Below, one piece after another: positions 826 to 52,186 of a stretch of DNA of 64,000 bases (the first letter of the stretch is position 1; every line of letters begins with the position of its first letter). Location: assembly GCA_041395665.1 (NCBI GenBank), contig JAWLAB010000004.1, forward strand, positions 106,227 to 170,226, read 5' to 3'. The stretch comes from Pseudomonadales bacterium. GTDB lineage: Bacteria > Pseudomonadota > Gammaproteobacteria > Pseudomonadales > UBA7239. The position numbers and the translations under genes are program-made. Under the pieces are notes generated by a model. That model did no database searches, had not been told where the DNA came from, and worked only from the letters and a program-made list of their open reading frames with translations.

Positions 826-1317
826 ATGATGATTTTTGATCGCACCATCAACCCGAAAGTTTTTACGCGCTGGCAACACTGCTTGGCGTTTGGCTTGGGC
901 AGTGGTTTGGCGCGCAAAGCGCCTGGCACTTGGGGGACGCTAGCTGCTGTGCCCTTTTGTTGTGCGGCGTGGTGGTTTTTACCTGCATGGCTATTTGCCT
1001 TATTGCTGCTGGTGATGATGATTTTTGGTGTGAAATTGTGCGGTGATGTGGCGCATGATCTTGGCGTGCACGATCACGGCGGCATTGTGTGGGATGAATG
1101 GGTGGGCTACGGCATTGCACTGTTCGCTTTGCCATTGCAATGGTACTGGCCGGTGCTGGCTTTTGTAGTTTTTCGTTTATTGGATATTTTGAAACCTTGG
1201 CCAATTTCGTGGTGCGACAAAAACCTGCACGGTGGTTTGGGAATCATGATGGATGATGTGCTGGCGGGTGCTTTTTCCTGTTTGGTATTGCACGGTATCA
1301 GGGTGTTTTTCGCATGA
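826..1317 (+). CDS. pgpA: phosphatidylglycerophosphatase A
   Basis: 163 aa membrane protein with FGLGSGLARKAPGTWGTLAAVP, GIVWDEWVGY and LDILKPWPI, all typical of PgpA. It lies directly after thiL. Confidence 0.9.
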   Translation: MMIFDRTINPKVFTRWQHCLAFGLGSGLARKAPGTWGTLAAVPFCCAAWWFLPAWLFALLLLVMMIFGVKLCGDVAHDLGVHDHGGIVWDEWVGYGIALFALPLQWYWPVLAFVVFRLLDILKPWPISWCDKNLHGGLGIMMDDVLAGAFSCLVLHGIRVFFA

Positions 1318-2810: not shown

Positions 2811-2837
2811 AGACCGGTATTAAGTAAAGGCCAGTGG

Positions 2838-7434: not shown

Positions 7435-7476
7435 CCTGAGTGAAAACGAAGTGCCGTTTATGCTATCACCCTTATT

Positions 7477-26752: not shown

Positions 26753-27262
26753 ATGTCAATTATGCAAAAAATTCTCGGTGTAGTTTTCGCCGTTCTTTTA
26801 GTGGCTGGTTGCTCTAGCCAACAGAGCAGTGAAGAAGGTGACGGTTCTGCGAATGGCAGCAGTGGCATGGATGGTTTGAGCGGTGCGGATACTCGCGGTA
26901 TTGGTTCTGGTAGTGGTGATTGGGGTTCTGTTTCTGATCAATACGGCAATGTGGTGTATTTCGAATTCGATAGTGCCAACATTCAACCAGCTTCTGAAGA
27001 AATGTTGAACGCATACAGCGAATTACTGAAAAGCTCTGGTCAACATGCCGTATTGCAAGGCAATACCGACGAGCGCGGTACTCGTGAGTACAACATGGCA
27101 CTCGGTGAGCGCCGTGGCAAATCAGTGGCCGACTATCTGTCTATGCGTGGCGTAAGCTCTAGCCAATTGGAAGTGGTGAGCTTTGGCGAAGAGCGTCCTG
27201 CTGTTGAAGGCAGTGATGAATTTGCGTACAGCAAAAATCGTCGCGTAGAAATCGTTAAATAA
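26753..27262 (+). CDS. pal: peptidoglycan-associated lipoprotein
   Basis: Lipobox LVAGC and OmpA-like domain (VYFEFDS..., GNTDERGTREYNMALGERR). Confidence 0.92.
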   Translation: MSIMQKILGVVFAVLLVAGCSSQQSSEEGDGSANGSSGMDGLSGADTRGIGSGSGDWGSVSDQYGNVVYFEFDSANIQPASEEMLNAYSELLKSSGQHAVLQGNTDERGTREYNMALGERRGKSVADYLSMRGVSSSQLEVVSFGEERPAVEGSDEFAYSKNRRVEIVK

Positions 27263-27306
27263 AAACGCCAATTTTTTTGGTGGTCAGTGTAAAAGCTGAC
27301 AAAAAG

Positions 27307-27331
27307 GGTCAGCGTCAGGCTGGCCTTTTTT
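27307..27331 (+). terminator. hairpin plus T-run between pal and cpoB (terminator/attenuator)
   Basis: Stem GGTCAGC, loop gtcag, stem GCTGGCC (one G-U pair), followed by TTTTTT. Confidence 0.45.
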
Positions 27332-27387
27332 GTTTTTTAGCAACGCAATTTGTTTCGATATTGATTTATATCCTTGGAGATAAATCC

Positions 27388-28203
27388 ATGAGCAAGATAA
27401 AAAAAATAGCAGTGATGGTTAGTGTTTTGTCGTTCTGCCAAGTTGCATTGGCTGCACCAGCACAAGTGGTTGACCTCAGTACGCAGCAACAACGAGCAAC
27501 GGTAAGCAACGGTAATAGCTCTGCAATCAGTGCAACGACTGATGCGCAAACGTATGGCACAGAACAAAATGTTTCGAGTTCCAGCGTTTCTAGCGGCACT
27601 GTCAATAATGGCGGTGACGCGAGTAGTGGCAGTTTGTTTATGCAAGTACAGCAACTGCGTGATGAAGTGGCTAATTTGCGCGGGCAGTTGGAAGAGCAGC
27701 AGCACGCGATTGATAACTTGAGCAAACAGCAAATGGCGATGGCACAAGGTGCGGCAAATGCAGCTTCTACAAGCAATGACGCGAGTGTCGGTGCCAGCAC
27801 GGCAACCACAATGAATAGCAACGCGCCTGCAGTCAATAATGATGGGCAAGCAGAATACGATGCGGCATACAGTTTGTTGAAAAACAAAGAAAATGATAAA
27901 GCAGGTGCCGCTTTTCAAGGAATTACTCAGCAATATCCCAACAGTAATTACGCGGGTAGCTCACTGTTTTGGTTGGGTTTTATTTATCAAACAAAGGGCG
28001 ATATGGATGGCTCGGCCAAAGCGTTTTCCTCACTGATTGAACGCTTTCCCAATCACAGTAAAGCTGATGATGCGCGATACAACTTGGGCAAAATTTATAA
28101 TCAGCAAGGAAAAACTGAACAGGCGAGATCTTTGCTGAAATCGGTAGCAGCGGGTAATTCTAAGTCGGCGCCTTTAGCAAAAAGTTATCTTGAATCTATG
28201 TAA
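27388..28203 (+). CDS. cpoB: cell-division coordinator CpoB (YbgF), TPR protein
   Basis: Signal peptide, coiled-coil (QVQQLRDEVANLRGQLEEQQH) and C-terminal TPR repeats. GGAGA RBS. It follows pal. Confidence 0.8.
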   Translation: MSKIKKIAVMVSVLSFCQVALAAPAQVVDLSTQQQRATVSNGNSSAISATTDAQTYGTEQNVSSSSVSSGTVNNGGDASSGSLFMQVQQLRDEVANLRGQLEEQQHAIDNLSKQQMAMAQGAANAASTSNDASVGASTATTMNSNAPAVNNDGQAEYDAAYSLLKNKENDKAGAAFQGITQQYPNSNYAGSSLFWLGFIYQTKGDMDGSAKAFSSLIERFPNHSKADDARYNLGKIYNQQGKTEQARSLLKSVAAGNSKSAPLAKSYLESM

Positions 28204-28221
28204 CTGTTTCAGATTGTTGTT

Positions 28222-28878
28222 GTGAATACCTCTGAAAAAACATTGCGTATCAGCGAGATTTTTTTCTCGCTACAAGGTGAAACACGCACCGTCGGTTTGC
28301 CAACAGTTTTTGTGCGTCTCACCGGCTGCCCGCTGCGCTGTGTGTACTGCGATACCGCTTACGCATTTGAAGGCGGGCAGTTGATGTCTCTGGATGCTAT
28401 TGTTACGGCGGTGGCAGAATATCAGCCGCATTTTGTTACCGTAACGGGCGGCGAGCCGTTAGCGCAGCCCAACGCGATTCCTTTGTTAAAAATGTTGTGC
28501 GATGCGGGTTACGCAGTTTCTTTGGAAACAGGCGGCGCGATGGTGATTGATGAAGTCGATACGCGTGTTTCGCGCGTACTGGATTTGAAAACGCCAGCAT
28601 CGGGTGAGTTGTCGCGCAATCGCTATGAAAACATCGTGCAGTTGACAAGCAATGATCAAATCAAATTTGTGTTGTGTGATCGCACTGATTACGAATGGGC
28701 GCGTATGCAAATTGATCAATACCAACTGCAAGATAAAGTGAGCGAGATTTTATTTTCGCCATCGTTTGGTCAGTTGTCGTATCGCGATTTAGCCGATTGG
28801 ATCATCGCGGATAACTTACCCGTGCGTATGCAGTTGCAGTTACACAAAATTATTTGGGGTGACGAGCGTGGTCGCTGA
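28222..28878 (+). CDS. queE: 7-carboxy-7-deazaguanine synthase (radical SAM)
   Basis: Motifs IFFSLQGE and the cluster motif [13 protein letters not shown]. Adjacent to queC. Confidence 0.9.
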
Positions 28879-29572
28879 CAATTCGCCGCAAAAAAAAGCC
28901 GTGATCTTGGTTTCCGGTGGATTGGATTCATCCACGGTATTGGCGATGGCGCGCGAGCAAGGGTATGACTGTTATACCTTGGCGTTTGATTACGGTCAGC
29001 GTCACTGCTCCGAATTGGCGGCGGCAGAAAAAGTATCAACGGCTGGTGGTGCAATCACGCACAAAGTCGTCACGCTGGATCTTTCTACGATCGGCGGCTC
29101 TGCGCTCACCGACGAAAGTATTGCTGTGCCAACGGATGCCAGTGAAGGTATTCCTGTTACTTATGTGCCGGCGCGCAACACGGTGTTTTTGTCGATTGCG
29201 CTGGGTTGGGCAGAAGTATTGGATGCGCGTGATATTTTTATCGGCGTGAACGCGGTGGATTACTCCGGTTATCCCGATTGCCGCCCTGCGTACATCGAGG
29301 CTTTTCAGAACTTGGCAAATCTTGCCACCAAGGCGGGTGTGGAAGGACGCACGATCACCATACACGCGCCGCTACTGCACATGAGCAAGGCTGCCATCAT
29401 CCAAGCAGGCAACCGCTTGGGCGTGGATTACGCGCAAACCGTGTCGTGTTATCAGGCCGATATCAGCGGCGCCGCTTGCGGTGTTTGTGATAGCTGCCGC
29501 TTGCGTCGCGAAGGGTTTCAGGATGCAGGTATTGCCGATCCAACGCGCTATCAATCGCTAATAAAAGCGTAA
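28859..29572 (+). CDS. queC: 7-cyano-7-deazaguanine synthase
   Basis: PP-loop VSGGLDSS and C-terminal Zn-Cys cluster CY......CGVCDSC. An alternative GTG start at about 28868 is possible. Confidence 0.9.
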
Positions 29573-29579
29573 AAAAAAC

Positions 29580-29607
29580 TTGTTTTTTTGTGCTCAGACA
29601 TTAAGAT
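29580..29607 (+). promoter_or_regulatory. candidate sigma70 promoter for tRNA-Lys
   Basis: TTGTTT, 16-nt spacer, TAAGAT, followed by a GC-rich discriminator (gcgcc), about 15 nt before the tRNA 5' end. Confidence 0.35.
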
Positions 29608-29622
29608 AAGCGCCTCTTTCGA

Positions 29623-29698
29623 GGGTCGTTAGCTCAGTCGGTAGAGCAGTTGGCTTTTAACCAATTGGTCGATGGTTCGAATCCATCACGACCCACCA
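29623..29698 (+). tRNA. tRNA-Lys (anticodon UUU)
   Basis: Hand-folded cloverleaf: acceptor GGGTCGT/ACGACCC, D arm GCTC-AGTCGGTA-GAGC, anticodon stem GTTGG/CCAAT with loop CTTTTAA, T arm GATGG-TTCGAAT-CCATC, encoded CCA. Confidence 0.95.
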
Positions 29699-29732
29699 TT
29701 CCCCCATATCGCAACATACCAAGAAAACCCTA

Positions 29733-29757
29733 AAGCCTGCATTTGCGGGCTTTTTTG
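29733..29757 (+). terminator. rho-independent terminator after tRNA-Lys
   Basis: The sequence AGCCTGCatttGCGGGCT is followed by TTTTTT. Confidence 0.65.
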
Positions 29758-29810
29758 TGCCTTTTTGATACCTAAACGCTCTTAGCTGTACCGTGACAGC
29801 ACAACCAAAA

Positions 29811-29882
29811 TGGGGGCACAATTGGGGGCATATTGAGGGGTTGGGGGTATCTTTGGGGGTATCCCAAAGGATTGGGGGTATC
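29811..29882 (+). repeat. array of G5-tract short direct repeats (2x TGGGGGCA, 1x TGAGGGG, 3x TTGGGGGTATC)
   Basis: TGGGGG units start at 29811, 29823, (29835 degenerate), 29842, 29854 and 29873, mostly 12 bp apart. The array lies between the tRNA-Lys terminator and the stop of the radical SAM gene. Confidence 0.9.
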
Positions 29883-29887
29883 TTGGC

Positions 29888-31396
29888 TTAAGTAACAAGA
29901 ATCCGCAGGAAAACTTTAAGGCTTCTGAGCAGTGCTTTGAAATTCCAATGGCGCAGTATTTTGATTATGCGTCGTGGTGAAAAATAAAAACGAATATTGG
30001 CAATGCGCAGTGTGTGCGCCAGGGGATAGTTATACGATTGCTGATACCAAGATTGTGAATTGCGATAAGTGCCAGAGTCAATTTGGCTTAATCTTGTGGT
30101 GACTTCTGCGTTTTCTCTCATAGCAAGATCATAAAGCGGCGTACCAAATTGCGGTACGACAGAGAAAAAGAAAGCCAGCGTGAGGTCGCTATTGATAGCA
30201 AAATCTATCGTTGCTTTTATTTCTTCTCGTGTTTCTGTGGGGAAGCCGAGCATAAAAAAGCCAGTGATTTGAATATTGCGCTTGCCAAATAGTGCGATGG
30301 CGCGGCGCGTTTTTTCAATGTCCAGATGTTTTTCAACAAGGTTTTGCAGACGCGGGGTTACAGTTTCCACAGCAATACACACGGCGTAAGTGCCGGCGTC
30401 ACACAGCGCCGTAATGACTTCTTCATCGAGAATGTCGGCGCGGAGCCCATTAGGAAAGGCGAATTTTAATTTTCCAGGCCAGCGGCGCTGCACCTCTCCC
30501 ATGATGGCTTTCAGGCGCGGTTTGTGTAGATTAAAAATATCATCAACAATTTGAAATTCATCAACGCCGTATTGCTCGTGCAGTCTTTCTATTTCAGCAA
30601 TGACATAGTCAACACTGTGATAGACAAATTTCTTGGAAAAAATATCGTGGCAGTAATTGCACAGATAGGGGCAGCCACGCGATGTAAACAACATTGCGTA
30701 GCGTTTCCCTTTTAGATTAGCAGCCATATTGGGCTCGATGGCGTAGGCGTCAAGGTTGACCATGTCCCATGCTGGCGGAGGTAGGCTATCTAAGTCATTG
30801 ATTTGATCTTGTTTTGTTGAAATATAAACGGAGCCATCTTCGCGTCGAAAAGATAGTCCCAAAATTTTCTCGTCGACGGTTCTATTTTGTGCGAGGCGCT
30901 CTAATGCTTCTGGAAAAGAGTAGTCAGCGGCACCCTCGAAAACCCAATCAATGTTCTCGTCATTGAGAATGGTTGGTGCATTTTTTAGTGCATAGGGGCC
31001 GCCAAACGCAGTGACGATAGAAGGGCGAAATTGTTTAACAATTTTTGCAATACAGTGCCCTGCATACGCTTCATAATTCAGTGCTGAAAAACCCACAATA
31101 TCCGGCTCATATTCTTCGAGAGTGCTCAGAATTTTTTCTGGTTCCATGCGGTGCAGCTTCATGTCGATCATGCGTATTTCCGCAAAATCGCCAAGCACTT
31201 CTCGGATGCTAGAGGCTATGTAAAGTAAGCCAAGTGGTGGTGCTTGCAGCGGTGCTGCAATTTGTTGATAAGGTTTTAAAAGTAGTACGCGTAGTTTACG
31301 CTGTGGTGTTGCAGCTGGCTGGTTGTATGAGTGATCGGAGCTAATGAGTTGAGCTGAATGTGCGTTCATTGGAAATATCTCATTATCCATGCACAA
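29888..31396 (-). CDS. cobalamin-binding-domain radical SAM protein (class B-like), copy 1
   Basis: The N-terminal half resembles a B12-binding Rossmann domain (LRVLLLKPYQ..., DIVGFSAL). Radical SAM motif FTSRGCPYLCNYCHD (CxxxCxxC). Basic amphipathic C-terminal tail. The start is TTG 31396 or ATG 31390. Confidence 0.8.
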   Translation of the reverse strand: MCMDNEIFPMNAHSAQLISSDHSYNQPAATPQRKLRVLLLKPYQQIAAPLQAPPLGLLYIASSIREVLGDFAEIRMIDMKLHRMEPEKILSTLEEYEPDIVGFSALNYEAYAGHCIAKIVKQFRPSIVTAFGGPYALKNAPTILNDENIDWVFEGAADYSFPEALERLAQNRTVDEKILGLSFRREDGSVYISTKQDQINDLDSLPPPAWDMVNLDAYAIEPNMAANLKGKRYAMLFTSRGCPYLCNYCHDIFSKKFVYHSVDYVIAEIERLHEQYGVDEFQIVDDIFNLHKPRLKAIMGEVQRRWPGKLKFAFPNGLRADILDEEVITALCDAGTYAVCIAVETVTPRLQNLVEKHLDIEKTRRAIALFGKRNIQITGFFMLGFPTETREEIKATIDFAINSDLTLAFFFSVVPQFGTPLYDLAMRENAEVTTRLSQIDSGTYRNSQSWYQQSYNYPLAHTLRIANIRFYFSPRRIIKILRHWNFKALLRSLKVFLRILVT

Positions 31397-32869
31397 TCAT
31401 TTTGAAAAAACCAAGGGCATTTTTCAGAACCAGCCGAAAGCTCAGGTGCTTAATCAGCAAATACATTCGCTTAGGTGACAAATAAAACCGTAAGTTTGCA
31501 CTGCGTAATAAATTGAGAGCTTGTGCCCATATGCACTTCAGTACCAAGAGTTTGTGAAATAGCGGGTGGATTCAATTTGACTCATTTGATGGGTTACATC
31601 GGCATTTTCTTGCATAGCAAGATCGTACATAGGGGTTCCTGGTTGGGGGGTGACAAAGAAGAAGTAGGCGAGAGTTAGCCTGCTGTTTATGGCAAATGCA
31701 ATGGTTTTTTTTATTTCTTCGGGTGTCTCTGTGGGAAAGCCAAGCATAAAAAAACCATTCACTTGTATATTGCGTTTACTTAATAATGTAATGGCTTGAC
31801 AGGTTTTTTCTATGTCTAGATTTTTTTCCACTAATTGTTGCAGGCGTGGGGTGACGGTTTCAATCGCTATGCAGACAAGATAGGTGCCTGCATTAGCTAA
31901 TGCGTCGATGACTTCTTTATCAAGAATGTCTGCGCGCAAGCCGTTGGGGAAGGCAAATTTTAATTTTCCTGGCCAGCGGCGAGTGACCTCTCCCATAATG
32001 GCTTTGAGTCGTGGTTTGTGGAGATTAAAAATATCATCAACAATATGAAACTCATCAACGCCATATTGTTCGTATAAACGCTCTATTTCTGCAATAACAT
32101 AATCAACGCTGTGGTAAACAAATTTTTTTGAGAATAGATCGTGACAATAGTTGCACAGGTAGGGGCAGCCACGCGATGTAAATAGCAAAGCGTAGCGTTT
32201 CCCTCGTAAGTTGTGTGCCATATTAGGAGCCTTAGCATAGGCGTCTAGCTGAATCATATTCCATGCTGGTGGCACTAAGCTATCAAGGTCGTTGATTTGG
32301 TCTTGGCGTGCTGAAAGACAAATAGAGCCATCGGGATGGCGAAATGACATGCCTAGAATGGACTCGTTAGGAGCTTGTCCTTGGGCCAAAAGCATTAAAG
32401 CTTGTGGAAGTGTTCTATCGGCAGCGCCTTCAAAAACCCAATCAATATTGGGGTCTTGTAAAATTTGTTCTGTATTTTTTAATGCATATGGTCCGCCAAA
32501 TACAGTAATGATATTGGGATTTGTTGCCTTGATGTGTTTTGCTAGCGCATGCCCAGCATAAGCCTCACAGTTAAGAGCAGAGATACCTACAACATCTGGT
32601 TGAAATTCTTGCAGTATTGAATCTATCGCGTTGTTTTCCATTTGCTGCAATTTCATATCCAAAACACGGACTTCAATGTGTTCGCCTAAGGTTGCTCGTA
32701 TATTGGATGCGAGATACAGCAGACCAATCGGTGGAGCATGAGTAGGCCCGGGAATAAGTTGGTAAGGTTTTACCAGCAGAACTTTTAATGAGCGAACAAT
32801 GGGTAAATTGGCTGTGTTCTTGCTATCAATGGTGGTGGAGTGGATGACTCTGGCGGCTAAAGCTTTCAC
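31383..32869 (-). CDS. cobalamin-binding-domain radical SAM protein, copy 2 (paralogue; C-terminal tail frameshifted as sequenced)
   Basis: Same architecture and an identical CPYLCNYC motif. The listed ORF stops at 31538 (..TNSWY*), but the next frame encodes AQALNLLRSANLRFYLSPKRMYLLIKHLSFRLVLKNALGFFKMIVHG*. This is homologous to the copy-1 tail and ends at 31383, overlapping the copy-1 start. GTG start at 32869. Confidence 0.75.
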
Positions 32870-32947
32870 AGTTGCGCTCGCATAGAAGTATTTCTTGTTG
32901 TTGCTGATAATCCTACCGCAGCGGTGGCATTTTTTCCTCTTAAATAA

Positions 32948-32971
32948 AAGCCCACTTTCAGTGGGCTTTTT
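32948..32971. terminator. bidirectional hairpin terminator between mcm and the radical SAM pair
   Basis: AAAGCCCACtttcaGTGGGCTTTTT, with A/T runs on both sides. Confidence 0.65.
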
Positions 32972-32998
32972 CTGGGGGTTGGTTTCTGATAATTGGCT

Positions 32999-35125
32999 TT
33001 AGCTCCTAATCGCCGCCAACACTTCTTTTGCCGCCACGGGGATTTGTGTGCCGGGGCCAAACACACACTTCACGCCGGCGTTGAACAGGAAGTCGTAATC
33101 CTGTTTGGGGATTACACCGCCCGCGATGACGATGATGTCATCCGCGCCGAGTTTTTTCAGTTCAGCGATCAGTTCCGGCACCAGCGTTTTGTGGCCAGCG
33201 GCTTGTGATGAACAGCCGACGATGTGCACATCGTTTTCCACGGCTTGTTTGGCGACTTCTGCCGGTGTGGAGAACATCGGTGACAGGTCGATATCGAAGC
33301 CCAAATCCGCAAACGCGGTGGCGATCACTTTCGCGCCGCGATCGTGACCATCTTGACCCATTTTGCACACCAGCATGCGCGGGCGGCGCCCGTTTTTATC
33401 GGCAAATTGTTTCACTTCTTCGACGATATTTTGCCAATCCTGATCCATTTGATATGCGCCTCCGTAAACGCCGGAAATCGTGCGGGCTTGTGCGTTGTAG
33501 CGACCGAATTCTTTTTCCAGCGCAAATGAAATTTCACCCACAGTAGCGCGTGCGCGCGTGGCTTGTACGGCTAGATCCAATAAGTTGCCGTTGCCAGTTT
33601 TTGCAGCTTCCGTCAGTTGATTGAGGATGGCTTCGACTTTGGCGTTGTCGCGCTTAGCTTTGAGATCGTTCAAGCGTTTGATTTGCGATTCGCGCACGGC
33701 GACATTGTCGATTTCTAAAATTTCAACATCGTCTTCTTTGGCGAGTTTGTATTTGTTCACGCCGACGATGACATCTTCGCCGCGATCAATACGCGCCTGT
33801 TTTTTCGCTGCGGATTCTTCGATGCGCATTTTTGGCAAACCGGATTCCACCGCTTTCGCCATGCCGCCTTTGCTTTCGATTTCTTCGATCAGCGCCCACG
33901 CTTTGTCAGCCAATTCTTGCGTCAGGCTTTCCATCATGTATGAGCCGCCCCACGGGTCAACCACATTACAGATGCCAGTTTCTTCTTGGATGATGAGCTG
34001 CGTGTTGCGCGCAATGCGGGCCGAGAATTCCGTCGGCAGGGCGATGGCTTCATCGAGCGCGTTGGTGTGCAGCGATTGTGTGCCGCCGAACACGGCTGCC
34101 ATCGCTTCGATGGTGGTGCGCACCACATTGTTGTACGGGTCTTGCTCGGTCAAAGACCAACCGGAAGTCTGGCTGTGTGTGCGCAGCATTTTCGAGCGCG
34201 CGTCTTTCGGGTTGAACTCGCTGACGATGCGCGACCACAACAAGCGGCCTGCACGCAGCTTGGCGATTTCCATGTAGAAGTTCATGGAGATGCCCCAGAA
34301 GAACGACAGACGACCAGCGAAAGCGTCGATATCCAAGCCCGCAGCGAGTGCAGTGCGGATGTATTCCTTGCCGTCAGCCAGTGTGTAAGCCAACTCCAGC
34401 GCAGCGTCGGCACCCGCTTCTTGAATGTGATAGCCGGAGATGGAAATGGTGTTGAACTTCGGCAGGTTTTTTGAACAGTAGGCGATGATGTCGCCGATGA
34501 TTTTCATGGAAGGTGCAGGCGGGTAGATGTAGGTGTTGCGCACCATGAATTCTTTCAGGATGTCGTTTTGGATCGTGCCAGCCAACTGGTCTTGCGTCAC
34601 ACCTTGTTCTTCGGCGGCGATGATGTAGCCCGCCAACACTGGCAGTACCGCGCCGTTCATGGTCATCGACACCGAGACTTTGTCGAGTGGGATGCTGTCG
34701 AACAACACTTTCATGTCTTCCACGGAATCAATCGCCACACCGGCTTTGCCGACATCGCCCGTCACACGCGGGTGATCCGAGTCATAGCCTCGGTGGGTGG
34801 CGAGGTCAAACGCCACGGAAACACCTTGCCCGCCCGCTGCCAAAGCTTTGCGGTAGAAGGCGTTGGATTCTTCAGCGGTGGAGAAGCCCGCGTACTGGCG
34901 AATTGTCCACGGCTTGCCGGCGTACATGGTGGCTTGCGGGCCGCGCAAGAACGGCTCGAAGCCGGGGAGCGTGTTGGCGTTGGGTAGGCTGGCGGTATCC
35001 GCTGCCGTGTACAGCGGCTTCAGCGTGATGCCTTCAGGAGTTTCGGTATTCAGGCTATCCAGCGGCTTACCTTTCAGTTGTTTTTCAACGGAGGCTTGCC
35101 AATCAGCGATGGTTTTGTTGCTCAT
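32999..35125 (-). CDS. scpA: methylmalonyl-CoA mutase, single-chain 708 aa form (B12-dependent)
   Basis: MCM catalytic TIM-barrel blocks ([35 protein letters not shown]). C-terminal B12-binding domain with DxHxxG ([11 protein letters not shown]). Confidence 0.92.
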
Positions 35126-35146
35126 AAGATAGGTTCCAGAAAAAAA

Positions 35147-35563
35147 TCAGTGGTGGTCGTCAGCGGGCTGGTTAATTTCAATCAGCACGCCATCGCAGCA
35201 TTTGGGGTGGATAAAAATCACTTGGCAGCCGTGTGCGCCAGGGGTCGGTGCATCAGAGAGGAATTGGTAGCCCTTGCTTTGCAGCATCGCCACATCTTCC
35301 AGAATGTTGTCGGAGCGGAAGCAGATGTGGTGAATGCCGCCTTTGCCGTTTTTCTCGAGGTATTTCGCAATCGGGCCTTCGCCGTTCAGCGGGTGCACCA
35401 ACTCAATTTGCGTGCCGGCAATGGGGAAAAACGCCGTGGTGGTTTTCGCGGCTGGCACATCTTCCGTGCCGTTAAAGGTGAGGCCGAAGTCTTCCAGAAA
35501 GCGGCTGATGGCTTTTTGCAGATCAGGAACAGCGATGGCGATATGGTCGAGATGGGTAATCAT
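35147..35563 (-). CDS. mce: methylmalonyl-CoA epimerase (VOC/glyoxalase fold)
   Basis: 138 aa. LDHIAIAVPDL... and GGIHHICF are typical of the family. It lies immediately upstream of mcm. Confidence 0.8.
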   Translation of the reverse strand: MITHLDHIAIAVPDLQKAISRFLEDFGLTFNGTEDVPAAKTTTAFFPIAGTQIELVHPLNGEGPIAKYLEKNGKGGIHHICFRSDNILEDVAMLQSKGYQFLSDAPTPGAHGCQVIFIHPKCCDGVLIEINQPADDHH

Positions 35564-35610
35564 CAGAGCCTCAGAAGAAGTGGGGGAGCCACAAAAGGAG
35601 GCGGTATTTT

Positions 35611-35640
35611 AGCGGGGTGCGGTAGGGCGGGCTAGTCGGA
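35611..35640. repeat. direct repeat copy A flanking the vapBC cassette
   Basis: The core GCGGTAGGGCGGGCTAGTCGGA (35619-35640) matches GCGGCAGGGCGG-CTAGCCGGA at 36382-36402: 19 matches, 2 transitions and 1 indel. Weaker similarity extends about 8 nt upstream. Confidence 0.7.
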
Positions 35641-35645
35641 AATAT

Positions 35646-36077
35646 TCAGGTTTGGTAAGTGCCGACAGATTCGTGCACTTGCGTTACCCAGTTTTCCACT
35701 CGCAAGTTGGGATAGCCCAGAAAATCTTGCTCATTGTTGGTGACGAGCGTGAGGTTGAGGCTCAAGGCGTGAGCTGCAATTAGGCGATCCAGCGCATTGC
35801 GCTGCCGATCGCGCACTGCAGCGCGCAGGATGCCGTAGCTCTCTGCTTCCTGATTGCCAAAAGGTAAGGCGGGAATCATCTCCAGCAAGCCTGCCAATGC
35901 CTGTTCATTCTGTTGGCGAGTGGCGGCGTGCATTTCCACGCCAGCGCGTAGCTCGGCCAGCGTCACCACAGACATCATCGCTTCGCCGCAGTAAAGGCTT
36001 TCCAGCCGGTGTAACACTTCCGGTGGGTGACGACGGATCAGGTAGATGCAGATATTGGTGTCCAGCAGGTAGCGCAT
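35646..36077 (-). CDS. vapC: PIN-domain toxin VapC
   Basis: The start MRYLLDTNICIYLIR carries the PIN acidic residue. TNN..DF lies near the C-terminus. The start is 1 nt after the vapB stop. Confidence 0.88.
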   Translation of the reverse strand: MRYLLDTNICIYLIRRHPPEVLHRLESLYCGEAMMSVVTLAELRAGVEMHAATRQQNEQALAGLLEMIPALPFGNQEAESYGILRAAVRDRQRNALDRLIAAHALSLNLTLVTNNEQDFLGYPNLRVENWVTQVHESVGTYQT

Positions 36078-36078
36078 G

Positions 36079-36318
36079 TCACCAGCCCGCACGATCGGTT
36101 TCAGGTTCGGCGGGTGGTCGCCCGTTTGCCAGAAAGTCAGCACTGAAAGCGGCGAGTTTTGCCTGTAGCCCATGCAGTTTTTGTTGGCGCAATGGGCGGA
36201 TCACCAGTTCATTGCCACGGCGTTCGATTTCCACGTCCTGCAAGGTATCTGGGAAATTCAATTCCTTAGGGATGCGCACGGCTTGAGAATTGCCGCTTTT
36301 GAAAACGCGAGTTTGCAT
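36079..36318 (-). CDS. vapB: AbrB/SpoVT-type antitoxin VapB
   Basis: MQTRVFKSGNSQAVRIPKEL is the classic SpoVT/AbrB swapped-hairpin motif. 79 aa. Confidence 0.88.
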   Translation of the reverse strand: MQTRVFKSGNSQAVRIPKELNFPDTLQDVEIERRGNELVIRPLRQQKLHGLQAKLAAFSADFLANGRPPAEPETDRAGW

Positions 36319-36335
36319 GGTGTTGCTCACTGAAT

Positions 36336-36356
36336 ATGTATATCCAGTATATACAT
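36336..36356. promoter_or_regulatory. inverted repeat upstream of vapB (candidate VapB operator overlapping a -10-like TATAT)
   Basis: ATGTATAT-ccagt-ATATACAT has perfect 8-bp arms and lies 18 nt upstream of the vapB ATG. Confidence 0.5.
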
Positions 36357-36373
36357 GATGAGATAAATATAAC

Positions 36374-36402
36374 AGCAGAGCGCGGCAGGGCGGCTAGCCG
36401 GA
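36374..36402. repeat. direct repeat copy B flanking the vapBC cassette
   Basis: See copy A. It lies between the lipoprotein gene stop (36430) and the vapB promoter. Confidence 0.7.
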
Positions 36403-36429
36403 TTGGCGTCTGATAGGTTCACTCAGCCC

Positions 36430-36945
36430 TCACTGCTTTTTAAGCTGCCACGGATATTTGTCCGCCATCACATCGCCAAAATACAGCACACCGGCGTTGC
36501 GCCACGCATCTAAGACGATGCCATTTTTCCAATCGTCACCTTTACGCGTGATGACAATAGCGTTGTGCTCTAGCAGTTGTTTTGGGCGTGCTTGCACGCG
36601 ATACATTTGCCAATACGGTGAGAGCTGCGGTTGCACGGCAACGGCGAGATCTTTTGCATAGTGAAAACACAAGCCCCGCGGTTTGATGCCAGAGTTCACT
36701 TCAATGTTGTGCAGCCAAGGCGCTAGCGTAACGCCGTATTCTGTGCGCAATTGCTCGGCGCGATTGACAGCGGTTTCTGCCAACTGTTGTGCAGCTTGTG
36801 GCGTGCTGTTGGGCGCGAGTTGCCTCAGTTCTATGGCTAAAGTTTGTATGCGCTGCTCTTTTTCTGTGTGTGTTTCTACGCGATGCGCACAGCCACAGAG
36901 AAAAACACAGAAAAGCGTCAGCGCAAACAGCTTTAACCCATTCAC
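36430..36945 (-). CDS. hypothetical lipoprotein
   Basis: The GTG start overlaps the valS stop (CTGTGAAT). Signal peptide plus lipobox ([14 protein letters not shown]). The longer ORF upstream would run inside valS. Confidence 0.6.
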
Positions 36946-39874: not shown

Positions 39875-40885
39875 TTGAAAATCCTTGATCGCATCATTGA
39901 TATTGAATTGACCAACCGGTGCAACGCCACCTGTGATTTTTGCCCGCGCGAGAAAACGCCCAAGCAGGGCTTTATGAGCATGGAAATTTTCGACAAAGTG
40001 ATTGATCGTGTGTTGGAGATGGGCGGTCACACCAAAGCATCGTTGACCGGTTTAGGCGAGCCGATGTTGCACCCGCATTTTTTAGAGTTTGTGACTCACG
40101 GCATTCAGCGAGGCTTGTGTGTTGATATTGTTTCCAACGGCTCACGCCTGACGCCTGCGCTGACAGCTGGTTTATTGGATGCCGGATTAAAAACAATCGC
40201 ATTCAGTGTCAGTGATATTGGCGAAGCCTATGACCGTGTTTACGGTCTGCCTTTTGCGGTGACGCGCGACAATATTGTGGATTTTATTGCGCAATCGCGC
40301 GGCCGCTGTCATGTTCAAATCACCGTTGTGCGCCATGATGATAACGCACAGCAAATTGATGAGATTGTGCAGTTTTGGCAACATGCTGGTGCAGATTATG
40401 TGCATGTAACGCGCGAAGAAAACCGCGGCGGCTCACACGATAAACCGTTTCAATTTTTGGATAACCGCAAGCATTGGCGTGAAGCCGTCAATATTTTGCA
40501 CAACAAAGGTTTTACCGAGTTGTGCGCCATCGCTTTTTATTCAGTTTTTATTGGCTGGAATGGTCAGTATTACCTGTGTTGCCAAGATTGGGAAAAGAAA
40601 ACACCGTTGGGTTCAATCTATGATTTTTCTATCGAAGACATGGATGCCTTAAAGCTAGGGCACAATCGCAAGCAAAAAGGCATTTGCCAGACTTGCAGCA
40701 TGAACCCTATCAATGAATTGCGTGAAGTGTTGTTCGATATCGAGCAGGGGTTGCGCGGTCGTTTTGCGATTGCGAATAAAGTTAACAGTTTGTGTACTGG
40801 CGCACAACGATTAGAAAAATTGACGCAGGTGCTGCGAGAGCATGGCGAGTTGAATCAGCAGCTTATTGCTGTATCTGAAGATTAA
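39875..40885 (+). CDS. radical SAM protein with twitch/partial-SPASM C-terminal Cys motif, function unknown
   Basis: N-terminal CNATCDFC (CxxxCxxC). The C-terminal C-x12-G-x4-C (ELCAIAFYSVFIGWNGQYYLC) plus CQTC gives four auxiliary Cys. TTG start. Confidence 0.7.
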   Translation: MKILDRIIDIELTNRCNATCDFCPREKTPKQGFMSMEIFDKVIDRVLEMGGHTKASLTGLGEPMLHPHFLEFVTHGIQRGLCVDIVSNGSRLTPALTAGLLDAGLKTIAFSVSDIGEAYDRVYGLPFAVTRDNIVDFIAQSRGRCHVQITVVRHDDNAQQIDEIVQFWQHAGADYVHVTREENRGGSHDKPFQFLDNRKHWREAVNILHNKGFTELCAIAFYSVFIGWNGQYYLCCQDWEKKTPLGSIYDFSIEDMDALKLGHNRKQKGICQTCSMNPINELREVLFDIEQGLRGRFAIANKVNSLCTGAQRLEKLTQVLREHGELNQQLIAVSED

Positions 40886-44439: not shown

Positions 44440-46883
<2,444 letters not shown>

Positions 46884-46955
46884 TTAAGAGGCGATTATAG
46901 AGGATTGTGCTCGCGAGAGCAGATGGTCGCGTTTATGCTCGGATAACAACAGGGT

Positions 46956-48720
46956 ATGGGATATGCACAATCAGCAATCGCGTTCTAGCGGCGTGTCCTG
47001 TGCAGCACGGTGCTATTTTCTTTCCGCTTCGCATTGCGTATAGGTGATATGACCGTGACATTCCGCGGATGTTTACGCCGCCACCATCATGTCGGCTTTT
47101 ATGTTGGGCATGGGGGTGGGGAGTTTGGTAGGCGGTTATTTGGCCGGTAGGCTCAGAGCCCTTTCGTTGTTTGTTGTGGTTTGCTGCGGCAAAACTGGTG
47201 ATTGGTTGTTTGCAGTGAGCGCAATGGTTATACGATGTGCTCTATCGTAAACCTTTCCATGCGCTTCGACTGTTTCACTCGGCGCAGTGTTATTCCTCAG
47301 TTTTGCTGCCAACGTTTTGCATGGGCATCATGCCGCTGATCTAAGGTGGCGCGGGTGAAGCCCCAAAATGCGCATGGCTGTACGCATTGAATACGCTGGG
47401 TGCGGGTTGGTGCGCGGTGGCTTAATTTTGGTCCAATGCATTGAATCAGCTTGCAGATTGGTGCGTTGATCAATGCGGCATGTGTGCATTATTGCTGGCT
47501 GCAGCGTTCCAGTTGATCGTAGGCGCGGTTCGCAAAATCGAACGGCAGTCAGTTTCTTTTCGCACATGATTGATTTACCCCTGTGGATTTGTCGCGGGTT
47601 TAAGCAATCGTTTTTTCGCGTGCTGTGATGCTGAAGTCCCTCGTTTATTCGTATTTTACTGCCAATTTTTTAACCGGATTGGCGTTGAACTGTGTTGGGT
47701 TTATTGTTTGCGACCCAGCCGAACAGCGGTTTTGTTGTTACAGGTGAGCATTGCCAGCTATGCCGTATTGTCTATCGCGGCGCTGATACATTTTGTAGAT
47801 CAGTGGCCATCATTGAGTATTTTGTGTTTTCACACCGATTAATTTGCTTTTGATTTGTTACCACACTTTGTGGCACTGTATTTTGTGGTGGTGCCGTTCT
47901 TGAACCGCCGACATCCAGCTTCTACAGAAAACAATCTGAATGAATAGGTCTGACGCTCGGCGCCTTCCGCCATGGGTTCAACACTGGGCGCGATTGTGGT
48001 CGGTTTGTTTTCATTACATGGCAGTGCAGGAACAAAATTTTATTGGTATGCTCGCTGTATTGGTTTTGGTAGTGAAGTGATGCGCTGTGAAAAAGCGGCA
48101 TCATTATTGCGGGTATCCATGGTGGTTTGGGTTTTTATGGTTTGCCCCAGCAGATGTGCTTGGGCAAACTGCACGTCCAATGCGATTTTTGCACGGAAAC
48201 ATTTCGCTTTATTGAGGCAATATCAGCGCGCGCGAACCGCCTTTTTGGAGTTCACACAAAGTGTGCTTATGGGATATTCGGCGCTGAGTATGGTGTGCGA
48301 TGCTGCACCGCTATCGGTTTAGGCTCAGGTAATACCTTGTGCTTCTGGCGTAGGCCAGAATAAAGCAAGTCATTTCCACGATATTGACGCGATATGCAGC
48401 AGAAAGCCGTGCAAAGACACAACGTAGGCGTTAATCTGGCGATGCGCGTGCCTGGTTGAGCGCAGTGATAAAAAATCGAATTACGAAACCGATGCCTTGC
48501 GCTTTTATGCCGTATGCAGAGCATTTGTTTCCAAAGTATTTTTCGTTGTTGCCGATCATTTTGAAGCCCGGCGGCTATGCGGTGATTTCCCTGAACATTC
48601 AAATTTCGTGAGTGCGTTTCCACACAAATTTTTTATGTTTATCGGCAGCAACGACCGATTGCAATTGATAAGGCACAGTCTGTGGGCCAGTGCAGTTTAC
48701 ACCAGTGCGCATCAATCCTG
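46956..48720 (+). pseudogene. fused MFS-like membrane domain / spermidine-synthase-like protein, multiply frameshifted as sequenced
   Basis: Fragments ATIMSAFMLGMGVGSLVGGYLAGRL (about 47080-47155), GSTLGAIVVGLF (47972...), GDARAWLSAV (48440-48469) and LKPGGYAVISLN (48562-48598) lie in different frames. The ends are approximate. Confidence 0.55.
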
Positions 48721-48776
48721 AACATTGAAACTTCCCAAATTGTGGATCCCACGATTGGACGCACCAGATTTGGACA

Positions 48777-49850
48777 TCAATCCGCTATTTGTTTCCCAAA
48801 GCATGTTTGAAACGAGTAGTCTCCGTCCATGCCTAAGCTGCCGCGATGGACAATGCCAGCAAGGGCTTGTTCATCGAAGCGTGTGATCGGCCGGATGCCG
48901 TGACAAAGGTTTGCCCAGCGCGAGTGTGATTGAGTAACCGCCATCGTGCAGTTAGCACTGTGGATCATGCGATACGAGCCGCAGGATGATTCAAAACCAT
49001 TTTTTATTGGTAAGCGTTTTGTAAAGAAGGTTTGGTCCACTGCTTGTCAGCTGCGATGTGCTCAAGGTTGCGTGGCTCTGTCGCCAGCTCACCCAATTCC
49101 AGTGCTGTACGAATGACTTTTGATTGTTGCCACGCGGCCATCAAATTATCGACGGCGCTGCGTGTTGATGCAAAACATGCATCAATGGAGAGTATGTCGC
49201 GAAATCATCCGGCCGGTGTCCAAACTCGCACATTTCTTGGCAAAATAATGCCTCGTCGCCTATGCGGTTCCCCAGTGTGCCACGACTGCGGGCAAATACA
49301 CGTAAGCAGCTGCAGTATGTGATCTTCTCGCGTGTGAAAATCGCGCAGCAATTTAATTTTCTCATTGTTTTGCAGCGGCGTGTTTTCATCGCAGGCTTGC
49401 CCAATTTGCCAGCGGCGTTTGCCAGAAGCTTGCAATAAAAACACATCGTAATAATCAAAGTGCGGTTACGCCGTTGTGTAGCTCACCATGTGTCATCTAA
49501 ACGCCAGCGCGGTAAAAATTGAAAATGTTTCAATAGATTTTGTACATCGGGTATCCATTGATCGACGGATTGCACCAGCAGTGAATGTGTTGTGGCAGTG
49601 TGCAAAACGCTGTTCATCAAAGTATTGTTCACTGAGGTTTGCTGAGCGTCGCTGATTATCGTGCATCGCTATCGGATTCACAGGCAATGCCAGCGAGATC
49701 ATCGCCATCAATAATGCCGAGCTTCGGCAATTGCGTATCCGCGTTGTTGTTGCCAATTGTTTCAATAAATTGTGCGTTAGCGGCCGTAATGAGATGGATG
49801 GCATTTGGCCTTTAGAGATCGATGCGTGTTATTATCGAGAAAATGTCATG
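48777..49850 (-). pseudogene. cupin-4/JmjC-type protein (RoxA/YcfD-like), multiply frameshifted as sequenced
   Basis: Fragments DDLAGIACESDSDAR, WRLDDTWVSY, HFDYYDVFLLQASGKRRWQIGQ and G...IGDEAL lie in successive frames on the minus strand. Confidence 0.55.
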
Positions 49851-50384
49851 AATAACGAAGCAGATATTGCAAAAATTCTATCCAAAGGTTTATTGCATCA
49901 CTGCATGGCGGTTGCTGTCAATTGCCCGTGGAGTGCGCCTGCCTGATTTGCTGCGTATGGGTTATGATGCGTTTGAAATGGATGACCGATCAAAACGCTT
50001 AACGCGAGCGGGCATTCACAATACCGCGAAGGTGTGTTCGCAACACTCCAGCGGCGATTGCTTGTATTTGGATCGCACGACGCGCCTGCTCGGCGCCATT
50101 CGCAATCATCAGTCGAGGCTGCCCGGTTTTTTGCGCATCGCAAGGATCATTCCTGAACTCGCCGCTGTGAAAAATCCAAATAACGCACTTGGCGTAATCG
50201 GCTGGTGTTGTTGGGCTTTCCAGGGTAAATCACCAGCTCAGAGATGGCTGCCCATAACAAATAACTGCCGACTGTGTGTAGCGTGGAGTCGCTGGTGATA
50301 AGCAAACAAGCCGAACGCCATACCGATCAGCAATTTTCACGGTGCGAGATATGTGGTTTCAACATGTCCCGCGCTAGTTAAGTA

Positions 50385-50735
50385 TCTAAATTATTGTGAT
50401 GATAAAACCGTTGCCGATTAAAAATGTTCCGCGTAATCAATCCAATATTGCCGCCGCTACATCAAAACGCCCTTGTCCGACATAAATGCCAGCGTGATCG
50501 GGCTTGCTGCACGCTATAACTACGAGTGGTGAAGGTTGTGCTATCACAGTCGGATACGGCAGTGAAACTCATGCATTTACCGTACGCGGCAAATGAATAT
50601 CTGCGCTGTTGAGAAATACGTTGAATGAGCCGCTGCAATCAAAACCACCTTTGCATTCACGCCAGCCCACACTTGTTGCATGCGCCAAAGGCCACTTGCT
50701 GGCTTGCGGAGACAGTTTGAACAATAGAAAAATCC
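50385..50735 (-). pseudogene. NlpC/P60 (C40) peptidoglycan endopeptidase domain protein, frameshifted as sequenced
   Basis: Minus-strand fragments KGGFDCSG (catalytic Cys), LPRT and PDHAGIYVGQGRF (catalytic His region) are split between frames. Confidence 0.55.
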
Positions 50736-50740
50736 GTAAT

Positions 50741-50775
50741 AAAAAACCCGCAACTTCTGCGTTGCTGCGGGTTTT
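50741..50775 (-). terminator. rho-independent terminator downstream of the Sel1-repeat gene (minus strand)
   Basis: The minus-strand reading is AACCCGCAGCAAC-gcagaa-GTTGCGGGTT followed by TTTTATT. Confidence 0.55.
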
Positions 50776-50910
50776 GCGGCAATGTCACGTTATTTTTCTT
50801 GTGATTTTGTTTCCTGCTTTTTTTTGGCCTTTTAGCAGCCTTTGTTCGGCAATTTTTTAGCCATGCTCTCCTGCTGGCATTTAGCATGCTGCCCATGTTC
50901 AAATGATTTT

Positions 50911-51299
50911 TACTTAAAGTAGCGCTTTTTTGTAGTTTTGTTTGACGCCTTTGCCATTCTCATACAACAAGCCTAGTCGGATATTCTTCTTTTGTTTGCT
51001 GCGCTTTGGTGATACCAGCTGTGCCGCGGATGCATAGTTTCTGTTTACGCCCAAGCCTGCTTCGTAGATAAGCCCTAAGTTGAACTGCGGCTTCCTTTTC
51101 GCGATTTGAGAAACCAACTTCTGGCGGTTTCGTGATTTGCTGTCGATCACCGCGACCGTTAGGATACGTCAGACACGGCATTCTGTGCAGCAGCATCGCC
51201 TTTTTTGGCTTTTGCCATATTGTCGTCAAATGTTTGGTCTGCAAAAGCCAATTGGCAGGTGGCAGCGAGTAAGGCAATTAAACCGAGTTTGCGAATCAT
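50911..51299 (-). pseudogene. secreted Sel1-repeat (TPR-like) protein, frameshifted as sequenced
   Basis: Signal peptide MIRKLGLIALLAATCQLAFA from ATG 51299. Sel1 units GDAAAQN, LGLIYEAGLGVNRNYASAAQ and LGLLYENGKGVKQNYKKAL lie in different frames. Confidence 0.6.
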
Positions 51300-51426
51300 A
51301 AACATCTCCGTGTGTGGGTAGGGTAGTGCGTTGGCAAAAAAATACCTGTGTATGGGCTGGCTGTCTACTGATTTAACGAGACAGGTTATGTGTGAGAAAA
51401 ATTATTGGGAAGATAGTTCCGCTGCG

Positions 51427-52186
51427 CTATAAAAATTTCAGCAGTTGTTCTTCGCAATCAGAAAAATCGCGCACACAGCCCGCAGTGCGAACGCCTTGTT
51501 CAATGGCTGGGTAGCTGTAGGTGTAACAGGCGCCACCCATGCCTTCTTGGCTGGCGAGCAGGTTCGCCCGCTGTTTTCGACATCGAAAAAGCGCGCCAGC
51601 GAAACAAAATAGCCTTTTTGCAAATAAAGGCGGCTTCCAGTTCGTCTAGGTCAGTAAAGTGCTTGGTCGCCCATTTGCCGAAGCCGAGAATAAAACGGGG
51701 TTGCCAGCAAATTCCTGCGGTTGCGTCAGTTGCAGATCGCGCGCCTGCCACTGAAAAATCTGCACGCCATCGCGCTGTACGGTGCAGATCGCATCGCGCT
51801 GATCAGTTTGATCGGTGATGTGGATATCCCACTGCCGTACGGGGTTGGAGGCAGGAGCGTGCCGAATCGCCATGATGGTCAAATCCAACAAGTGCGTGCA
51901 GTTGGATGAAGGCGGCATGTGGAAGTTGAGAGTCGCGCAGGCTGGCGTGAATGCTGGTGCCGATGTAGCCTGATAGGCTCCACCGCGCCAGGGCAGCTGG
52001 TATAGGGGATGCGTTTGGTTTGCGCGTCGATGGCGGTGACGCTCACCATCGTGACTGACCGTGACGGTAAAGCCGTGGTTGGTGTCTTCCAACGCAAACA
52101 CAGCGCCTGCGCGCTGCTCCAGTCAATGGCGGCGGTAAGTGCCTTTGCCGTAGTTGGGATTGCGTGGGATAGTCGGGGAGTGCCAT
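51427..52186 (-). pseudogene. DUF2889-like protein, multiply frameshifted as sequenced
   Basis: Fragments FALEDTNHGFTVTVSHDGERV, TAIDAQTKRIPYTSCPGA and NCTHLLDL (compare the GCTHL motif of DUF2889) lie in different minus-strand frames. Confidence 0.45.

Follow-up and report, generated by a model that had tools for sequence, protein, structure and literature searches.

Class B radical S-adenosylmethionine (SAM) enzymes, which carry a B12-binding domain, perform chemically hard methylations and C–C bond formations, and those acting on lipids (HpnP/HpnR, GrsA/B and Gmm) underlie widely used geochemical biomarkers. Lipid-tailoring enzymes of this kind occur as paralogue sets, including HpnP/HpnR (hopanoid C-2/C-3 methylases), HpnJ, GrsA/GrsB (ring synthases of glycerol dialkyl glycerol tetraethers (GDGTs)), Gmm and the radical SAM enzyme of the ladderane cluster (PMC13459092). 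Here we analysed two adjacent minus-strand genes for class B enzymes, hereafter the upstream and downstream copies, in a 64,000-nucleotide stretch of a Pseudomonadales genome (contig JAWLAB010000004.1, positions 106,227 to 170,226), which we call the window, and compared them with contigs and loci of relatives (L numbers). In our favoured account, to which we assign a probability of roughly 60%, the pair is a vertically inherited tandem whose products would act by the lipid- and methyl-directed mechanism proposed below, and the break that interrupts the upstream gene is an artefact.

Both proteins are class B radical SAM enzymes, an assignment that is solid because Pfam domains, structural matches of a predicted model and sequence matches in the PDB agree. 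In profile hidden Markov model searches, both copies scored above the gathering score for the B12-binding domain PF02310 (E values of 2.6e-10 and 1.2e-12; 40.6 and 48.1 bits against 32.1) and for Radical_SAM PF04055 (4.8e-18 and 2.4e-19; 66.3 and 70.5 bits against 29.5), and the cluster motif CPYLCNYC is present in both alike. Across an alignment of 24 family members, the CxxxCxxC cysteines C240, C244 and C247 are invariant, as are residues S102, L104, G130 and G131, which form the SxL...GG of the cobalamin-binding motif defined in MetH and mutases, and a C-terminal signature made up of W448, Y449, Y453, A464, F468, P472 and R474. The C-terminal 55 residues of both copies contain 9–10 lysines and arginines and no aspartate or glutamate, with a net charge of +10 and no acidic residue in the final ~45, and the tail helices in the AlphaFold model of the downstream protein have hydrophobic moments of 0.69–0.92. 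That model (AF2; predicted local distance difference test (pLDDT) of 83.4, predicted template modelling (pTM) score of 0.83) has a class B fold: its top 17 Foldseek matches in the PDB were all class B-type enzymes (E values of 9e-18 to 2e-13), with template modelling (TM) scores of 0.56–0.72 to AprD4, MgmA, TsrM, CysS, OxsB and TokK, and a PDB sequence search returned the same class B set (5.5e-20 to 4e-06). The original prediction, made from the sequence alone, had described an adjacent minus-strand pair with a B12-binding-like domain, a CPYLCNYC core and a basic amphipathic tail; open reading frames (ORFs), Pfam domains and motif all agree with that layout, and the tail is real and conserved by its charge, its hydrophobic moments and the 24-member alignment.

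No NCBIfam model came near its cut-off for either copy. BchE (TIGR02026) scored 136.8 bits for the downstream and 149.8 bits for the upstream copy against a cut-off of 481, and for the two copies the Sden_1168 P-methyltransferase model NF038361 gave 148.7 and 142.9 bits (cut-off 575), ApyD, a methylase of ribosomally synthesized and post-translationally modified peptides (RiPPs), 137–141 bits (750), HpnJ TIGR03471 136 and 119 bits (577.6), the AprD4 diol dehydratase model NF033070 84.1 and 61 bits (500), the ladderane radical SAM model 81–90 bits (360), HpnR TIGR04367 54 and 56 bits (650) and the Ta0216-type model 34–37 bits (500). With scores this far below the cut-offs, the copies fall in no characterised orthologous family with a known substrate, in keeping with the original prediction. 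Homologues number more than 3,000, and in the collections searched all those at least 45% identical come from uncultured bacteria, spanning Pseudomonadales, Cellvibrionales, Halioglobus, Alcanivoracaceae, Moraxellaceae, Deltaproteobacteria/Myxococcota, Planctomycetota and Spirochaetales metagenome-assembled genomes (MAGs). Three to five paralogues can occur at separate loci of one MAG, as in ABC1.141 (L013, L017 and L020) and SRP302895_co1_220 (L014, L019 and L049). These comparisons indicate an uncharacterised, multi-paralogue family of uncultured Pseudomonadales-type Gammaproteobacteria and other MAGs; a literature search for this family or a similar cluster brought up only the known lipid radical SAM enzymes.

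The two copies derive from an ancient duplication, with purifying selection acting historically on both. With the upstream tail restored as described below, they are 65% identical in amino acids from end to end. The proportion of differing synonymous sites (pS) between them is 0.76 overall, which is saturated, and 0.59–0.76 in the most conserved block, while the corresponding proportion of nonsynonymous sites (pN) is 0.03–0.08 in the conserved core and 0.3–0.46 at the ends. Saturated synonymous sites together with an almost unchanged core protein mean that this is an ancient, constrained duplicate. The saturated pS excludes a recent duplication, and gene conversion as the source of the near-identical core is likewise excluded, core pS being as saturated as elsewhere. 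Consistent with an old split, upstream-type and downstream-type proteins form separate sister clades in a neighbour-joining tree of 125 homologues. The ratio of nonsynonymous to synonymous divergence (dN/dS, or omega) of the downstream gene against its orthologues is 0.045–0.07. Restricted to unsaturated comparisons, omega is 0.08 for the upstream gene between L009 and L090 (dS 0.110, dN 0.009), 0.09–0.12 for the downstream gene in several comparisons and 0.02–0.03, also in several, for the adjoining methylmalonyl-CoA mutase gene (mcm). The upstream gene of the window itself differs from its nearest allele (L010) once in 443 codons, which leaves no power for dN/dS. The pN/pS values uphold the earlier view of two constrained copies whose cores differ mainly at synonymous sites, and omega, a ratio proposed then as a check, lies well under 1 in the comparisons given above.

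Relatives, obtained by exact-protein look-up and a scan of GTDB genomes, place the pair in a conserved block, in the order epimerase, mcm, upstream copy, downstream copy. The mcm gene adjoins one or more radical SAM genes in 10 loci. The full block is kept in L001, L002, L003, L008 and L011, in which the upstream gene is intact (492–497 amino acids (aa)) and the far side of the pair is occupied by Sua5/YciO and IspA genes, not by tRNA-Lys; the same pair is also found in L009, L010 and L090. The tRNA-Lys side is common to the window and L009, its closest relative, whose contig ends ~20 nt inside the tRNA gene. By this synteny the mcm side is fixed and the far side has undergone rearrangement among relatives; the pair is inherited with mcm rather than inserted at the tRNA, and is an old, vertically transmitted tandem. 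The two genes overlap by 4 nt in L001 and by 1 nt in L003 and L008, and in the window the restored upstream tail ends in a TAA at 31385–31383, overlapping the downstream ATG; because the genes abut or overlap they are probably co-translated. An overlap between the tail of one copy and the start of the next had been proposed from the window alone, and such tight spacing recurs in relatives.

Departures from this arrangement were also seen. In L014 a gene for a RoxA-like di-haem cytochrome c (1220–3037) lies between mcm and a downstream-type radical SAM gene, in L012 mcm is followed by one single radical SAM gene, and in L013 (7320–7931) the upstream copy is left as a 203-aa fragment beside a fragmented mcm. 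An obligate heterodimer of the two proteins was considered and is unlikely, as L012 and L014 have only the downstream type and L004 has an upstream-clade gene alone. On the other side of the block, a PIN-domain (VapC-type) toxin gene (35646–36173, minus strand) adjoins the epimerase gene, and the equivalent position in L001 holds a MazE-type antitoxin and PIN pair.

In the window the upstream gene is interrupted by a premature stop codon and, ~25 nt beyond it, by a single-nucleotide deletion, so that both lesions fall within 27 nt (Table 1). A 54-aa ORF in another frame (31383–31547) encodes the missing tail, and the intact genes in L009 and L090 end in the same or nearly the same sequence; the ancestral reading is ...SWY-E-SAYGHKLS-NLLRSANL..., not the ...KCIWAQAL... 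that a single shift produces. The original prediction of a tail frameshift was right about where the restored tail ends, at 31383, and wrong in positing one shift instead of two lesions. Programmed frameshifting or readthrough was examined as an explanation and rejected: no slippery heptamer precedes the TGA, and the ancestral frame runs 8 codons past it, up to the deletion, which is a separate change.

The lesions lie where the assembly changes haplotype. Sliding comparisons showed 99–100% identity to L010 over 31543–33242, with codons 1–443 of the upstream gene differing at 1 nt of 1329 from the intact 495-aa gene of L010, and the switch from L010 to L090 coincides with the TGA and the deletion. 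At this junction L010 reads TGGTAC GAA ACT(GCC) and L090 reads TGGTAT GAA AGT(GCA), and the window reads TGGTAC-T-GAA-GT(GCA), a sequence that has the polymorphic base twice over and lacks one base in each of two homopolymers (AAA to AA, CC to C). In L010 and L090, the two parental haplotypes, the upstream gene is intact, as it is in L009; the three contigs are independent. Elsewhere in the window leuS, an essential gene on the minus strand, retains a recognisable N-terminal part of ~530 codons that is spread over three frames by at least 10 frameshifts, with its last 325 codons (44440–45417) intact, and ~6.7 kb (45418–52160) contain no long ORF; Pfam searches of the ORF fragments of 47–52 kb gave no matches. 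This stretch is probably an unpolished or low-coverage part of the assembly, genome decay being the alternative. From these comparisons we conclude that the assembly of the window is a mosaic of strains and contains local consensus errors and low-quality stretches, and that single frameshifts in it should not be over-interpreted. Because the two upstream lesions sit at the haplotype switch, both haplotypes are intact and leuS is riddled with frameshifts, we consider it probable that they are an assembly or consensus artefact at the junction of two co-occurring haplotypes.

Table 1. Features of the pair and its immediate surroundings, in window coordinates
Feature	Position	Strand	Description and basis
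tRNA-Lys(UUU)	29623..29698	+	Convergent with the downstream copy; neighbour, not integration site; ARAGORN, Rfam
Downstream copy	29888..31390	-	Intact class B radical SAM gene, 500 aa from ATG 31390; ORF list
Alternative starts of downstream copy	31396 and 31369	-	TTG 31396 (502 aa) and ATG 31369
Segment, downstream centre and 3' part	30044..30943	-	Diverges from relatives: identity to L010 74-88%, L009 72-86%, L090 71-83% (L090 contig ends at ~30815 and its comparison reaches no further)
Segment matching L090	30950..31535	-	100% identical to L090 over ~590 nt, except the missing C; sliding identity
Displaced upstream tail	31383..31537	-	SAYGHKLS / NLLRSANLRFYLSPKRMYLLIKHLSFRLVLKNALGFFKMIVHG, then stop; three-frame translation
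1-nt deletion, upstream copy	31514..31516 (~31515)	-	CTCT[C]CAAT; shifts the tail frame
In-frame TGA, upstream copy	31538..31540	-	Codon is GAA (Glu) in L009, L010 and L090; alignments
Upstream copy, codons 1-443	31541..32869	-	GTG start at 32869, to the premature TGA; ORF list
Methylmalonyl-CoA mutase (mcm), 708 aa	32999..35125	-	PF01642 (794 bits) and PF02310; upstream neighbour
Methylmalonyl-CoA epimerase-type glyoxalase-fold gene	35147..35563	-	PF13669, PF00903; same position in L001 and L003

In the mechanism we propose, each protein would bind a [4Fe–4S] cluster through CPYLCNYC and cleave SAM to a 5'-deoxyadenosyl radical, while its N-terminal Rossmann domain would hold cobalamin through the conserved SxL...GG; since DxHxxG is absent, the cobalamin would be base-off/His-off. 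An unactivated carbon would then be methylated, or modified in another way, by means of the cobalamin, and we give methyl transfer itself an even chance. Like HpnP/HpnR or GrsA/GrsB, the two copies would differ from each other in regiospecificity or in the substrate they accept. The likeliest class of substrate would be a membrane-embedded lipid, possibly isoprenoid or polyprenyl-derived; we hold this tentatively, at appreciably less than even odds, on the weak pointers given by the gene contexts of L091–L094 and by the conserved amphipathic, basic tail.

Those contexts are as follows. In L091, three family members are interleaved with genes for a UbiA prenyltransferase, an NTP-transferase/GT2 fusion, an MMPL protein, a geranylgeranyl-reductase-family protein (TIGR02032, 178 bits; cut-off 158.8), a spermine-synthase-like membrane protein and two polytopic proteins of no named family. 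L092 and L093 each have three tandem members beside homologues of a polytopic membrane protein of L091, and in L094 an MMPL gene is followed by two members. The recurrent polytopic membrane protein (445–483 aa; L091 4909–6327 and 11530–12912, L092 4542–7283 and L093 328–1779) had no Pfam or NCBIfam match and 2 matches, both unnamed, in a protein database; it may work as a partner of the radical SAM enzymes or handle their substrate. L093 also encodes a 257-aa DUF2889-like protein (6838–7611) directly downstream of its three tandem radical SAM genes, and a frame-broken gene of the window (51433–52161, minus strand) resembles it (tblastx summed E value of 1e-34), a likeness that may be fortuitous or may reflect a remote functional connection.

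A conserved partner gene was not found. When 672 ORFs from 50 loci were clustered all against all, only lineage-level synteny emerged (mcm, Sua5/YciO, IspA and the like), and a Pfam tally (given below) was equally negative, in agreement with the original prediction that no partner gene is visible near the pair. A paralogue clade at 59% identity has recurrent neighbours (ComM-like, aldehyde dehydrogenase and glyoxalase genes) that are uninformative. Farther off in the window, a radical SAM/SPASM protein of 336 aa is encoded at 39875–40885 on the plus strand (PF04055 and PF13186; best NCBIfam match a tungsten-cofactor oxidoreductase maturase, 79 bits against a cut-off of 380), and a B12-binding radical SAM gene paired with a radical SAM/SPASM gene also occurs in L007 (17717–20325). 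As for cofactor supply, the bluB gene and B12-dependent mutase reported earlier were both confirmed, the former as a 5,6-dimethylbenzimidazole synthase gene (2838–3467, minus strand; TIGR02476, 271 bits, cut-off 150) and the latter by PF01642 with PF02310. Production of the lower cobalamin ligand by the organism is probable, and this local supply (bluB, mcm) could plausibly be linked to the pair; a search of the whole window at Rfam gathering thresholds turned up neither a cobalamin riboswitch nor another RNA element that would control the pair.

Two other histories of the locus have to be weighed. The original prediction pointed to a low-GC islet beside tRNA-Lys, a classic island integration site; in that reading the pair was acquired horizontally and integrated there. 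The tRNA gene is indeed only 190 nt from the downstream stop codon, the pair, at 43.6% GC, lies below both the window (50.5%) and mcm (55%), and GC at third codon positions (GC3) of the upstream gene is the lowest of 48 ORFs. The low GC stands, but as a mild outlier rather than the mark of an islet: measured against 46 other ORFs, the two genes reach z scores of −1.5 and −2.0 (GC) and −1.5 and −1.9 (GC3), and 6 other genes of the window are as low in GC as the downstream copy. At unrelated loci (L004, L005, L020, L035, L036 and L040), family genes, single-copy paralogues included, lie 5–8 GC points under their neighbours, and members in high-GC genomes match host composition; because the deficit recurs at such loci, it appears to be a trait of the gene family in these lineages and not a sign of recent import. 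Synonymous sites are, moreover, saturated between orthologues, and therefore a foreign composition should long since have been ameliorated. The pair accompanies mcm in L001, L002, L003, L008, L009, L010, L011 and L090 with or without tRNA-Lys, the tRNA-Lys junction being found in L009 and absent from L001, L003 and L008, so comparison of the tRNA locus among relatives gave no presence/absence pattern of cargo. No integrase or recombinase was found among the ORFs of 27000–36000 (CpoB, QueE, QueC, two radical SAM, mcm, epimerase and PIN toxin), nor does 29500–36500 contain a direct repeat of the tRNA 3' end. The terminator said to lie between mcm and the pair (32913–32927) scores on the plus strand only, and none was found on the minus strand after the downstream copy. 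With synteny across relatives, which the original prediction had itself named as grounds for refutation, contradicting it, we regard integration at tRNA-Lys as extremely improbable. The other alternative concerns the upstream break, which could be real: imprecise recombination of two divergent alleles would have left a very recent pseudogene, or a truncated, still-active 443-aa enzyme without the tail, with the downstream protein as the only full-length enzyme. Both changes lie within 27 nt exactly at the mosaic breakpoint, and the undecayed gene body, 1 nt away from an intact allele, would fit a very recent event. Real recombination also occurs here: between the window and L090, dS is 0.21 in mcm and 0.235 at the N terminus of the downstream gene, yet the upstream gene is saturated, at 73% amino-acid identity, and the upstream copy is missing from L012 and L014 and can to that extent be dispensable; these findings count against our favoured account as well. 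A doubled base with two homopolymer contractions is, however, not a normal product of homologous recombination, the frameshifts in leuS attest to local consensus errors, and the upstream gene is intact in both parental haplotypes and in all other pair-carrying relatives, with omega of ~0.08. We therefore rate a genuine lesion as rather unlikely, and prefer the artefact.

Two features of the locus deserve mention in their own right. Compared with L090 and L009, a divergence island between otherwise close genomes spans 31541–32998, covering the upstream gene and the mcm–upstream spacer, with flanking dS of ~0.2; the comparison implies that the allele was replaced through recombination with a more remote lineage. 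At the opposite end, G-rich repeats occupy 29811–29885, between the tRNA-Lys terminator and the downstream stop codon (four TGGGGGYAT in 60 nt plus degenerate copies; Tandem Repeats Finder periods of 12 and 31), and are 98–100% conserved in L009; elsewhere in the 64 kb the motif occurs once, against 0.7 expected.

The chemistry and substrate admit other readings too. The target could be a macromolecule, RNA or a ribosomal peptide or protein, with the basic C-terminal helices binding nucleic acid or peptide: the tail has a net charge of +10 and no acidic residue, NCBIfam shows likeness to ApyD (137–141 bits) and rSAM_ocin_1, MiaB, MtaB and RimO rank just behind the class B enzymes in structural likeness, and neighbours include genes of RNA-modification type (queC/queE, Sua5/YciO, a pseudouridine synthase, DeaD and TrmO). 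These housekeeping neighbours vary between loci, however, no precursor-peptide ORF or RiPP partner was found beside family members, Pfam detected no TRAM or other RNA-binding domain, and such multi-gene clusters as were found all suggest roles linked to membranes or isoprenoids, so we judge a macromolecular substrate quite unlikely. Slightly better placed, though still unlikely in our estimation, is a degenerate B12-like fold in a cobalamin-independent, non-methylating enzyme that would carry out AprD4-like dehydration, cyclisation or C–C coupling. AprD4 is the best match both by sequence (E value of 5.5e-20) and by fold (TM 0.66–0.72), and BchE, a cyclase, and HpnJ, which catalyses a ring contraction, are among the best NCBIfam similarities; yet the AprD4 sequence match spans only the radical SAM core (residues 194–424), PF02310 is above its gathering score in both copies, and the SxL...GG of the cobalamin-binding Rossmann domain is invariant across the family.

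Several further points weigh against the lipid-directed account that we prefer. The Pseudomonadales copies stand among unrelated housekeeping genes, and no Pfam domain was enriched in a tally of 112 neighbours drawn from 23 diverse loci. The lipid context comes from four contigs only, whose members are 43–56% identical to the proteins of the window. The highly basic tail could bind RNA instead of a membrane, and AprD4, the closest solved structure, is a non-methylating dehydratase that has a B12-like domain but is not known to use cobalamin. Curated families are unreached, the nearest being BchE (150 bits against 481) and Sden_1168 (149 against 575). A bolder extension would make this multi-paralogue orphan family a new set of lipid-tailoring enzymes, the pair installing two different modifications (such as methylation, ring or C–C bond) on an isoprenoid or other membrane lipid of Gammaproteobacteria, with the striking divergence of upstream alleles between close relatives arising from selection for lipid or envelope diversity; we regard this as improbable, on a par with a macromolecular substrate.

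The pair represents one of very many unassigned subfamilies, and the features that had made it look special fall away: the island is contradicted, and the overlap with its frameshift is either ordinary conserved synteny or a probable assembly artefact. Genomes of uncultured but environmentally common Gammaproteobacteria nonetheless carry three to five paralogues each of this family, which makes it a reasonable target for enzyme discovery.

Measured against known systems, the proteins share with the solved class B enzymes AprD4 (6fd2), MgmA (9ccb), TsrM (6wte/6wtf), CysS (9n1b-d), OxsB (5ul2-4) and TokK (7kdx/7kdy) an N-terminal Rossmann-like domain, a partial TIM-barrel CxxxCxxC core and a C-terminal helical region, at Foldseek E values of 1e-13 to 1e-17 and an identity of only 16–22%. 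In contrast to these, no common substrate-binding region can be inferred, the basic amphipathic tail with SWY..Y...A...F...P.R is specific to the family described here, and its genes stand mostly alone, whereas the solved enzymes are encoded in dedicated biosynthetic clusters. BchE, the anaerobic Mg-protoporphyrin IX monomethyl ester cyclase, is the best NCBIfam match of the upstream protein (profile positions 18–389 of 497) and the name given by JGI to several homologues; unlike BchE, the family has no photosynthesis gene context, has several paralogues per genome and belongs to lineages without a sign of phototrophy in the loci examined. The Sden_1168/PhpK type (NF038361 and TIGR04479, cut-offs 575 and 600) is the best match of the downstream protein and has the same domain order, but phosphonate or phosphinate genes such as pepM were seen in none of the ~50 loci. 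By score the proteins are not members of the HpnR, HpnJ, ladderane or Ta0216-type families, and no hopanoid (shc/hpn) or GDGT genes were seen among the neighbours. HpnP/HpnR, GrsA/B and Gmm are an analogy only, as stand-alone or loosely clustered class B paralogues of differing regiospecificity on membrane lipids, and the likeness extends to those family members that lie beside MMPL, UbiA, geranylgeranyl-reductase-family and membrane-protein genes.

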